Part shown: positions 3,218-3,982 of the stretch, piece by piece
Layout of the letters: every line of letters starts with the position of its first letter
How positions within the stretch are numbered: the stretch's first letter is position 1
The notes under the pieces: generated by a model
The model's database searches: none
What the model saw: the letters and a program-made list of their open reading frames with translations, nothing else
What the model was told of the DNA's origin: nothing
Translations under genes and position numbers: made by a program
From: Escherichia coli
GTDB taxonomy: Bacteria; Pseudomonadota; Gammaproteobacteria; Enterobacterales; Enterobacteriaceae
Length of the DNA stretch: 3,982 nt
NCBI RefSeq assembly: GCF_003334255.1
Contig: NZ_QOWU01000112.1
Strand: one strand, 5' to 3'

Positions 3218-3243
3218 TGGAATGAAACGCAAATACCGGTAAG

Positions 3244-3285
3244 CCAGATTCTGGCACTGACAGACAGAAAACCTGTTATCTGTCA
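3244..3285. repeat. Two adjacent dyads in a noncoding stretch: CCAGA-T-TCTGG (3244-3254) and TGACAGACAG-AAAAC-CTGTTATCTGTCA (3258-3285)
   Basis: Inverted repeats read directly from the sequence. No flanking U-tract, so not called as terminators; possible protein-binding sites or RNA structure. Confidence 0.3.
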
Positions 3286-3376
3286 ACGAACAGGGAAAAA
3301 ACGATAAAACCCACTGGATTATTTTTATGAAAGAGGCATCCAGTGAGTAGATTCGTAAGGCTACAGATACGTATAT

Positions 3377-3394
3377 CTGAATAATTAAATTCAG
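3377..3394. repeat. Dyad CTGAAT-AATTAA-ATTCAG in an AT-rich stretch; possible operator
   Basis: Perfect 6-bp arms (3377-3382 and 3389-3394); the adjacent 8-bp palindrome ATACGTAT is at 3367-3374. Surrounding 3360-3420 is AT-rich and promoter-like, but no confident -35/-10 pair was found. Confidence 0.25.
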
Positions 3395-3456
3395 TTCTGT
3401 AAATAAAATTTAATCCTTAACCGGATGGATTTCTGCACCCTCAGAACATCAGGAGG

Positions 3457-3472
3457 CCGCCCGAAAGGGCGG
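3457..3472 (+). promoter_or_regulatory. Stable GC hairpin with GAAA tetraloop (CCGCCC-GAAA-GGGCGG) between a perfect SD (AGGAGG 3451-3456) and ATG 3480
   Basis: 6 GC-rich base pairs plus a G-U closing pair (3456/3473) and a GNRA-type loop. No U-tract on either strand. If folded, the SD-to-ATG distance drops from 23 nt to about 7 nt. Confidence 0.4.
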
Positions 3473-3479
3473 TAGTGAA

Positions 3480-3590
3480 ATGCGAAAGTTCAAAATTATT
3501 ATTGAAACGGGAATAGCTGGTGGAGATTTTGAGGATGTATTCGAAGTGGACGATGACGCAACACCTGAGGAAATTCATGACGGAGCATAA
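3480..3590 (+). CDS. Small acidic ORF, 36 aa (MRKFKIIIETGIAGGDFEDVFEVDDDATPEEIHDGA), hypothetical
   Basis: ATG 3480 to TAA 3588-3590, in the SD-hairpin-ATG context. No recognisable domain. An ORF this short is weak evidence alone. Confidence 0.3.
   Translation: MRKFKIIIETGIAGGDFEDVFEVDDDATPEEIHDGA
3516..3523 (+). other. Chi octamer GCTGGTGG
   Basis: Exact match to the E. coli Chi sequence on the plus strand, inside the small ORF. A single occurrence, so functional relevance is unknown. Confidence 0.4.
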
Positions 3591-3654
3591 GAAATTTTCT
3601 TTAACTACTGCAATTACTCATACCACGAAATAAAAGACGATGAGGAAGAACAAA

Positions 3655-3765
3655 GTGGCTGATTTTTGTTCAGCTAAATATAACATCAGTTTTGAAGAGC
3701 GGGATGAACTATTAATGGACTATGGTGAGTTACGCGGTGGAAGTGCTGCTGATGTCGAATCCTAG
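3655..3765 (+). CDS. Small ORF, 36 aa from GTG 3655 (in-frame ATG at 3640 gives 41 aa); hypothetical
   Basis: GAGGAAG at 3642-3648 lies 6 nt before GTG 3655. Ends at TAG 3763-3765. The frame stays open past the TAG to TGA 3829-3831. Confidence 0.2.
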   Translation: MADFCSAKYNISFEERDELLMDYGELRGGSAADVES

Positions 3766-3827
3766 CGTGATGACTATGAAGCGGGAAAAACTCCGGTCGA
3801 AGCATATTGTGATGAGTGGGGCGATGA

Positions 3828-3938
3828 ATGAGCGAGATTAATTATCAGGAAGGGCATGAAACGGCGGGGCAAGCAAAACCAGTGGCATGGCGATATCGCT
3901 ACGTGAAAAAAGGCGTTACGGACTTTCAGGGGAAGTAG
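3828..3938 (+). CDS. Small ORF, 36 aa (MSEINYQEGHETAGQAKPVAWRYRYVKKGVTDFQGK); hypothetical
   Basis: ATG 3828 sits in an ATGA overlap with the TGA of the preceding frame; GGGG lies 7 nt upstream. Ends at TAG 3936-3938, and the same frame stays open to the window edge. Confidence 0.2.
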   Translation: MSEINYQEGHETAGQAKPVAWRYRYVKKGVTDFQGK

Positions 3939-3982
3939 TGGTCTGGTGACTGGAAATATGTACCGAAAAAAGAGGATTGTAA

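Follow-up and report, generated by a model that had tools for sequence, protein, structure and literature searches.

Why does a phage early region contain about 760 bp in which no gene can be recognized? In a 3,982-nucleotide stretch of Escherichia coli DNA (hereafter the window), positions 3218-3982 carry no long open reading frame (ORF) on either strand and directly follow the open part of a methyltransferase-like gene. An earlier sequence-only reading had offered three explanations: a small RNA or regulatory hub, a decayed gene, or the boundary of an accessory insertion. In this study, the interval was compared with complete E. coli genomes and with phage genomes. The gene-free interval is very probably a row of four phage genes, each disabled by a stop codon or a frameshift, that is, a case of ordinary prophage decay.

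Identity of the locus and its sequence features

The ORF list of the window is that of a lambdoid early region. A cI-like repressor gene lies on the minus strand (220-627). On the plus strand it is followed by a Cro/DicC-like gene (711-941), a YdaT-family gene, an O-like gene, and a DUF977 gene (2442-2864). The DUF977 gene shares 4 nt with the methyltransferase ORF (2861-3217), which confirms the coupled gene pair described earlier. Megablast against complete E. coli genomes matched all 3,982 bases at 99.7% identity in 266 genomes, and the annotations in the matching genomes include dicA, dicC, "toxin YdaT family", "DUF977 family", and "class I SAM-dependent methyltransferase". The divergent regulators dicA and dicC and the Qin flanking genes were all found at high identity. 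Only two differences separate the window from E. coli ATCC 8739, one at position 677 and the other a 9-nt tandem duplication at 944-952; over 3218-3982 the identity is 100%. By this homology, the window belongs to a Qin-type cryptic lambdoid prophage of E. coli and makes up its dicA/dicC early region. We are highly confident that 3218-3982 is the middle part, now decayed, of the early operon that runs rightward on the dicC side.

The absence of long ORFs was reproduced: none longer than 45 codons lies wholly inside the interval, the longest being 45 aa (minus strand, 3441-3578) and 41 aa (plus strand, 3640-3765). All five dyads that had been listed were also recovered to within a few bases, at 3243-3255, 3263-3284, 3364-3379, 3377-3394, and 3457-3472. 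The interval holds nine perfect dyads with a stem of at least 6 bp, compared with 2.3 +/- 2.0 in dinucleotide shuffles, of which 1.3% reach nine. The other 765-nt blocks of the window, mostly coding, contain 2-10 dyads each. The dyad density is therefore significantly higher than in shuffles, yet within the range of the surrounding sequence. Strong folding is confined to one of the five dyads, the hairpin at 3457-3472 (-16.9 kcal/mol in context, z = -3.7); the others range from -4.4 to -9.9 kcal/mol. The palindromes at 3243-3255, 3263-3284, and 3648-3671 lie inside dead coding sequences and are chance or codon-level features, and those at 3364-3379 and 3377-3394 are two weak AT-rich palindromes at a mosaic junction.

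The segment 3360-3420 had been read as AT-rich and promoter-like. Its composition bears out the first part (23% G+C vs. 46% in the window), but the second part did not hold. A scan for sigma-70 consensus hexamers (-35 and -10, with 16-18 nt spacing) found no site in 3360-3420, and five promoter-like sites were found across the whole window, where 6.3 were expected, so that there is no excess. The covariance models of Rfam 15, searched against both strands of the whole window, gave no match at E <= 1. A terminator consensus scan gave two matches in or adjoining the interval, at 3183-3206 (plus strand) and 3674-3658 (minus strand), both weak and within coding sequence.

Four inactivated genes

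BLAST against phage genomes identified copies of this region with open genes at 88-92% DNA identity in vB_EcoS-640R1, vB_EcoS-689R5, ArgO145, and others, and intact copies of all four genes are present in phages or prophages. According to the sequence-only reading, intact conserved protein genes across this interval in homologous prophages would mean that the present copy is a degraded pseudogene, and related phages do carry such genes. Alignment with the intact copies revealed five disabling lesions in the window: TAA at 3215-3217, an extra G at 3293-3295 (+1), TAA at 3588-3590, TAG at 3763-3765, and TAG at 3936-3938. The suggestion of a decayed gene was thus right about decay and wrong about number, as there are four genes and not one. 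The ORF scan sees only fragments of 36-45 codons because each gene carries point lesions.

The first gene is a class I SAM-dependent DNA methyltransferase pseudogene, which aligns end to end with intact copies over 2861-3348 (plus strand). Its open part stops at 3217, and its ancestral stop codon is TAG at 3346-3348. The stop at 3215-3217 is a nonsense mutation of a lysine codon (AAA to TAA); three homologues have AAA at this site, and the TAA is also found in MEI005, which is 98.9% identical. Alignment with L218, L217, and a Stx2c phage located the second lesion at 3293-3295, where an extra G (GG to GGG) shifts the frame by +1. Without this G, the frame ends in GKNDKTHWIIFMKEASSE followed by the stop codon, as in the intact proteins. 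When both lesions are repaired, the frame reaches TAG 3346-3348, reading LIFKWNETQIPVSQILALTDRKPVICQRTGKNDKTHWIIFMKEASSE, and is collinear with intact proteins of 157-175 aa. The intact copies include a 175-aa ORF in the Stx2c phage EH0430 and WP_001275735.1 (157 aa) in E. coli 2014C-3599, and further homologues were found in Stx2c phages and in Salmonella phage Oslo by BLAST against phage genomes.

The second gene (3480-3662, plus strand) has 60 codons and belongs to DUF7167 (PF23768, phrog_1997). It is interrupted at codon 37, where AAA is changed to TAA (3588-3590). Intact 60-aa copies are found in 640R1, ArgO145, and 689R5. Close homologues of this gene carry PF23768, and the NCBI annotation pipeline (PGAP) gives it the same name. 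Relatives are encoded in 310 viral contigs, and all 80 that were retrieved match residues 1-60 at 100% identity. Many truncated or frameshifted variants of the DUF7167 gene also occur in E. coli.

The third gene (3655-3831, plus strand) is a 58-codon, phrog_519-like early gene that shares 8 nt with the DUF7167 gene. Its start codon is changed from ATG to GTG at 3655, and codon 37 from TGG to TAG (3763-3765); intact copies are present in 640R1, ArgO145, 689R5, and L092. The fourth, phrog_660-type gene overlaps the third by ATGA (4 nt). It runs on the plus strand from 3828 through 3982 and past the end of the window, and CAG is changed to TAG at codon 37 (3936-3938). A further change lies beyond the window, where other sequence has taken the place of its 3' end. 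An intact 119-aa copy exists in 689R5, with homologues in mEp460 and Av-05.

The repaired translations matched PHROG families over their full length. The repaired methyltransferase matched the DNA methyltransferase family phrog_954 (E = 6.7e-80, residues 5-161), the repaired DUF7167 protein matched phrog_1997 (E = 1.6e-29, positions 1-57 of 57), and the other two products matched phrog_519 (E = 1.6e-13) and phrog_660 (E = 2.3e-28). None of the four repaired proteins had a match in NCBIfam. The dN/dS of the window copies against the intact copies was 0.10-0.20, a value that mostly reflects history before inactivation. This indicates that the divergence built up under purifying selection and that the genes were once real, coding for protein under such selection until recently.

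We propose that the ancestral order would have been the 3' third of the methyltransferase gene, a leader of about 130 nt, and then the genes for the DUF7167 protein, the 58-aa protein, and the phrog_660 protein of about 119 aa, the three small early genes being tightly packed. Point lesions inactivated each of the four genes: every small gene acquired a nonsense codon, and the methyltransferase gene acquired both a nonsense codon and a +1 frameshift. The same arrangement is seen in the lambdoid early genes that lie between the replication genes and Q in 640R1, 689R5, and ArgO145, where the order DUF7167, 58-aa, phrog_660 and the overlaps of 8 and 4 nt are the same. The difference is that the DUF7167 and 58-aa genes are open in these phages, as is the phrog_660 gene in 689R5, whereas all three carry a stop codon in the window. 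Point nonsense and frameshift lesions of this kind are typical of the E. coli cryptic prophages Qin, Rac, and DLP12, which the locus also resembles in having a transposase fragment downstream.

The decay itself is largely known already, as the NCBI pipeline labels two of the four genes as pseudogenes. In ATCC 8739, PGAP lists "DUF7167 family protein, internal stop" and "hypothetical protein, frameshifted; internal stop" in this region. In MEI005, the methyltransferase gene is marked as a pseudogene. Probably nothing functional is made from the interval today, while a residual transcript or a truncated 36-aa peptide may still be produced. The result also serves as a warning, since prophage stretches that look ORF-free and dyad-rich are usually strings of point-inactivated genes.

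A conserved leader with a hairpin between the Shine-Dalgarno sequence and the start codon

Between the methyltransferase and DUF7167 genes lies an intergenic leader (3349-3479, plus strand). It consists of an AT-rich part with the two weak palindromes and a conserved 60-nt core (3413-3472). The leader sequence directly after the methyltransferase gene is identical in other prophages, and the stretch from 3377 on precedes the DUF7167 gene in 640R1 and 689R5. Among DUF7167 homologues at 74-80% protein identity, 6 of the 60 core positions differ (10%), compared with 18-21 of 50 third codon positions in the adjacent gene (36-42%). The substitutions in the leader fall almost entirely in loops and linkers. 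This comparison shows constraint on the segment 3413-3472 in intact phages. Of the 19 phage records with this element, 18 give no annotation for it.

The core contains two stem-loops and a Shine-Dalgarno (SD) sequence. The first hairpin (3424-3442, plus strand) has the consensus stem GAGGG/CCCTC and a 9-nt loop, and its stem is paired in 96.9% of cells across 39 leader variants. In the window it is broken by a G-to-T change at 3426, the lineage reading GGATGG, and this copy does not fold (z = +0.47). The leader was also searched for an upstream ORF that would terminate at the TAA/TAG conserved downstream of the hairpin, and this candidate was rejected; its sole ATG (3425) is made by the window-specific change at 3426, and the other copies have no start codon. 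The SD sequence AGGAGG (3451-3456, plus strand) lies 23 nt upstream of the ATG at 3480, and its AGGAG core is conserved in the leader variants. It is followed directly by the strong hairpin, CCGCCC-GAAA-GGGCGG (3457-3472, plus strand), which sits between SD and start and leaves 7 nt to the ATG. This hairpin is the one real conserved structure of the interval and is part of the translation-initiation leader of the dead DUF7167 gene. Apart from the stem mutation at 3426, the segment 3413-3472 is intact in the window, and some RNA- or DNA-level activity could be retained.

The unit formed by the SD sequence and the strong hairpin is not confined to DUF7167 genes. A search by pattern located at least 120 viral contigs with the unit, which is invariant between phages with unrelated upstream sequence, such as ArgO145. 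In 95 of the 103 instances with an ORF of at least 40 aa, the unit ends 6-9 nt before the start codon. The ORFs that follow fall into at least four N-terminal types: MRKFK... (DUF7167), MTTLFRKEYP.../MKHYLEK..., M[TA]ELTKEQ..., and MQEIKENI.... Those of the MTTLFRKEYP.../MKHYLEK... type are 72 aa long, and MKHYLEK... is annotated as DUF4014. The unit is often preceded by a leader of about 45 nt, ATCCTTAACCGGAGGGATTTCTGCACCCTCAGAACATC, which has its own small GAGGG/CCCTC hairpin. In the most distant homologue of DUF7167, at 64% identity, the SD sequence is plain and no hairpin is present. A full-text literature search for the hairpin sequence found no paper.

Covariation was then considered. 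The 39 leader variants gave no compensatory pairs, in a set biased by the search pattern, and an unbiased set anchored on the upstream leader gave two (G-C to A-U and C-G to A-U) together with several mismatched variants. The stem is 90-100% paired at each position, and the changes are mostly C to U, which keeps G.U pairs.

A hairpin between the SD sequence and the AUG is known from phage T4, where it shortens the spacing from 22 to 5 nt in gene 38 and from 27 to 11 nt in gene 25 (PMC3014915). In the window, the SD sequence is likewise 23 nt from the AUG, a stable hairpin lies wholly between them, and 7 nt would be left once it is looped out. There is no sequence relation to the T4 genes. The prophage unit also differs in being portable, standing before several unrelated genes, and in its weak covariation. 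By analogy with T4, a split ribosome-binding site would be a plausible candidate role for the hairpin at 3457-3472.

A second role would be in recombination. Mosaic exchange among phages has been linked to the idea of a conserved boundary sequence (PMC3029335), which the SD-hairpin unit fits. The unit might be mainly such a sequence, promoting homologous exchange of gene cassettes among lambdoid prophages, and not a split ribosome-binding site. Homology breakpoints of the phages fall at the edges of the unit (ArgO145 type; L018), the same 25-60 nt stand before at least four N-terminal types, and some contigs have two copies about 1,064 nt apart. The weak covariation, with two compensatory pairs and several mismatched variants, points the same way. 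However, a pure recombination linker needs neither a fixed distance of 6-9 nt to the start codon, nor AGGAG directly 5' of the stem, nor a concentration of substitutions in loops. We regard recombination as a serious candidate for the main role of the unit, though probably not the correct one. The boundary and split-site roles are not exclusive.

A combined reading can be put forward tentatively and is, in our estimate, rather unlikely as a whole. In this reading, AGGAGG-CCGCCC-GAAA-GGGCGG, placed 6-9 nt before the ATG and often accompanied by the upstream leader of about 45 nt, would be a portable cassette for translation initiation in E. coli lambdoid prophages that has not been described before. 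It would act as a split ribosome-binding site and, in addition, as a patch of homology through which small early genes are exchanged, and the window would hold a relic of it. The leader may be a split site like that of T4 gene 38 or a recombination boundary, and it is the sole mildly novel lead of the interval. Its position before unrelated small early genes could give it a modest use as a natural, testable second example of a split ribosome-binding site outside T4, and the same leader is a candidate boundary sequence for mosaic exchange.

If the interval encoded a small regulatory RNA or acted as a regulatory hub, it would resemble dicF, which lies on the other side of dicA. Like the proposed RNA, dicF is a non-coding element of the Qin prophage processed from an early operon, but it is located outside the window, and Rfam finds no dicF within it. 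The 147-nt leader at 3349-3495 folds better than shuffled sequences (z = -2.8), its core is conserved well beyond synonymous sites, and it stands upstream of unrelated genes, all of which favours such an RNA. Against this, there is neither an Rfam match on either strand nor a promoter-like site in 3360-3420, and four fifths of the interval is dead coding sequence, with most dyads weak or inside it. The strong hairpin has no U-tract, being followed by TAGTGAAATG and on the other strand by CCTCCTGATG, and it is absent from the terminator scan, so that no intrinsic terminator defines a 3' end. A conserved element that ends 6-9 nt before a start codon fits an mRNA leader and not a free-standing RNA. 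These results leave the proposal of a small RNA or regulatory hub without support, and we consider it very unlikely.

Mosaic junction, codon-37 stops, and spread of the lesions

The remaining proposal was that the ORF-free stretch marks the boundary of an accessory insertion or deletion by which the methyltransferase gene lost its 3' end. There is indeed a mosaic junction, at about 3349-3377. The sequence of the Stx2c phage departs from that of the window directly after the methyltransferase gene, and phages of the 640R1 type diverge upstream of 3377. Elsewhere the site takes cargo, as in 2014C-3599, which has a gene pair of the sce7726 family and a beta family. However, the 3' end of the methyltransferase gene is present and collinear with intact genes to 3346-3348. 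It is hidden only by a point nonsense mutation and a 1-nt insertion, and the identical methyltransferase-leader junction adjoins an intact methyltransferase gene in L218 (2014C-3599). Loss of the 3' end through an insertion is therefore contradicted, and this explanation is extremely improbable. The junction is an ordinary module boundary.

The stops of all three small genes (3588, 3763, and 3936) fall at codon 37, each 108 nt past the start codon. Under a uniform single-mutation nonsense model, the probability of this coincidence is about 1e-4, for an observation made post hoc. We attribute the three stops to coincidence, though simple random decay does not explain them. The phrog_660-type stop is also found in 640R1-type phages, whose DUF7167 and 58-codon genes are intact, which indicates that it arose separately.

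That the genes are alive and their in-frame stops decoded by readthrough, a suppressor tRNA, or recoding is hardly credible: three consecutive genes with a stop at the same index do look non-random, but both TAA and TAG are used, at 3763-3765 the TAG of the window is TAA in MEI005, neighbouring genes end normally with TAA and TGA, frameshifts accompany the stops in the methyltransferase gene and in the MEI005 copy of the phrog_660-type gene, and intact relatives have sense codons (AAA, TGG, and CAG) at the stop sites. To our knowledge, no decoding of TAA is known in E. coli.

As a separate observation, the codon-37 mutations differ in type (A to T, G to A, and C to T) and in age.

The four inactivated genes are widespread. 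At least 80% of the interval is carried by about 389 of 5,426 complete E. coli genomes, and 469 records match it at 99% identity or more. The lesions are common to ATCC 8739 and many independent complete genomes, and E. coli W has the identical sequence as well. Beside these roughly 470 Qin copies stand about 1,800 copies of the intact type. In the diverged MEI005, all four stop codons are kept, one TAG being changed to TAA, and the phrog_660-type gene has an additional 1-nt deletion. Since the lesions are identical in many independent genomes and the stops are retained in MEI005, they are real and not sequencing artefacts, and assembly error is a very unlikely source of the stop codons. The lesions are old enough to be common to hundreds of E. 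coli genomes. The window and MEI005 show 13 differences, which are few for judging relaxed selection.

The Qin prophage of E. coli K-12 MG1655 lacks positions 5205-10003 of the ATCC 8739 locus, the whole interval included. K-12 has deleted the interval outright, which indicates that it is dispensable, and the leader hairpin was sought in K-12 Qin and was absent because the region is deleted there. The two loci otherwise share position and synteny (dicA, dicC, ydfX/YdaT-like, then ydfW, flxA, and relBE), and their flanks are 98.7-99.7% identical. The window copy differs in keeping the approximately 4.8 kb deleted in K-12 and represents an earlier stage of the same decay. The leader apart, its import is mainly to document this intermediate stage in a well-known cryptic prophage.

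The SD-hairpin unit in the window and related prophages

Upstream of the DUF7167 gene, an SD-hairpin unit was found at positions 3451-3479 of the window, consisting of the SD sequence AGGAGG, a GNRA-loop hairpin, and a spacer of 6-9 nt. This unit is portable and precedes several unrelated small early genes in E. coli lambdoid prophages. Besides the window, it was carried by phage vB_EcoS-640R1 (L003), by loci L005, L091-L093, L096, and L097, and by >120 IMG/VR contigs, and it was left unannotated in the phage records. In layout, it resembles the split ribosome-binding sites that T4 has at its genes 38 and 25. 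In some prophage contigs from IMG/VR (L105, L130, and L154), the unit was present twice, the copies lying ~1,064 nt apart. As direct repeats, these paired units could lead to loss or gain of a cassette.

Mosaic junction, accessory cargo, and the K-12 deletion

The mosaic junction 3' of the methyltransferase gene carries a pair of AT-rich palindromes at 3364-3394, CAGATACGTATATCTG and CTGAATAATTAAATTCAG, which overlap each other. Both palindromes were kept in the methyltransferase-bearing homologues L217 and L218 (E. coli 2014C-3599). In 640R1-type phages, the second palindrome is nearly conserved; the upstream gene there is a different one, and its stop codon shares bases with the left arm of the palindrome.

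In 2014C-3599 (L218 1035-2103), a 'sce7726 family protein' gene and a convergent 'beta family protein' gene stand in place of the small early genes. Upstream of this pair, DUF7167 is present as its first ~23 nt, which follow the leader. The site thus takes accessory cargo, which is possibly defence-related.

Compared with ATCC 8739 (L002), K-12 MG1655 Qin (L288) showed a clean ~4.8-kb deletion between ydfX and ydfW. The deletion removed the O-like gene, DUF977, and the methyltransferase gene, together with the pseudogenes of window interval 3218-3982 and a transposase fragment. Most of the YdaT-like gene was also lost, and therefore ydfX is the stump of this YdaT-family gene.

Premature stops, an insertion, and a duplication

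A premature stop was observed exactly at codon 37 in all three consecutive small pseudogenes (3588-3590, 3763-3765, and 3936-3938); P was ~1e-4 under a uniform nonsense-mutation model, for an observation made post hoc. The 640R1 counterpart of the fourth gene (L003 3450-3707) is annotated as an 85-aa 'hypothetical protein'. It has a TAG in common with the window and a 2-nt insertion in an A-run, past which the annotated ORF enters a basic, low-complexity frame. This protein looks like an annotation artefact.

Close to the start of the YdaT-family gene, the window carried a 9-nt tandem duplication, GGCTCGTGA, at 944-952. The aligner writes the duplication as AGGCTCGTG; it adds three in-frame codons and sets the window apart from ATCC 8739 and phage PhiR42_1.
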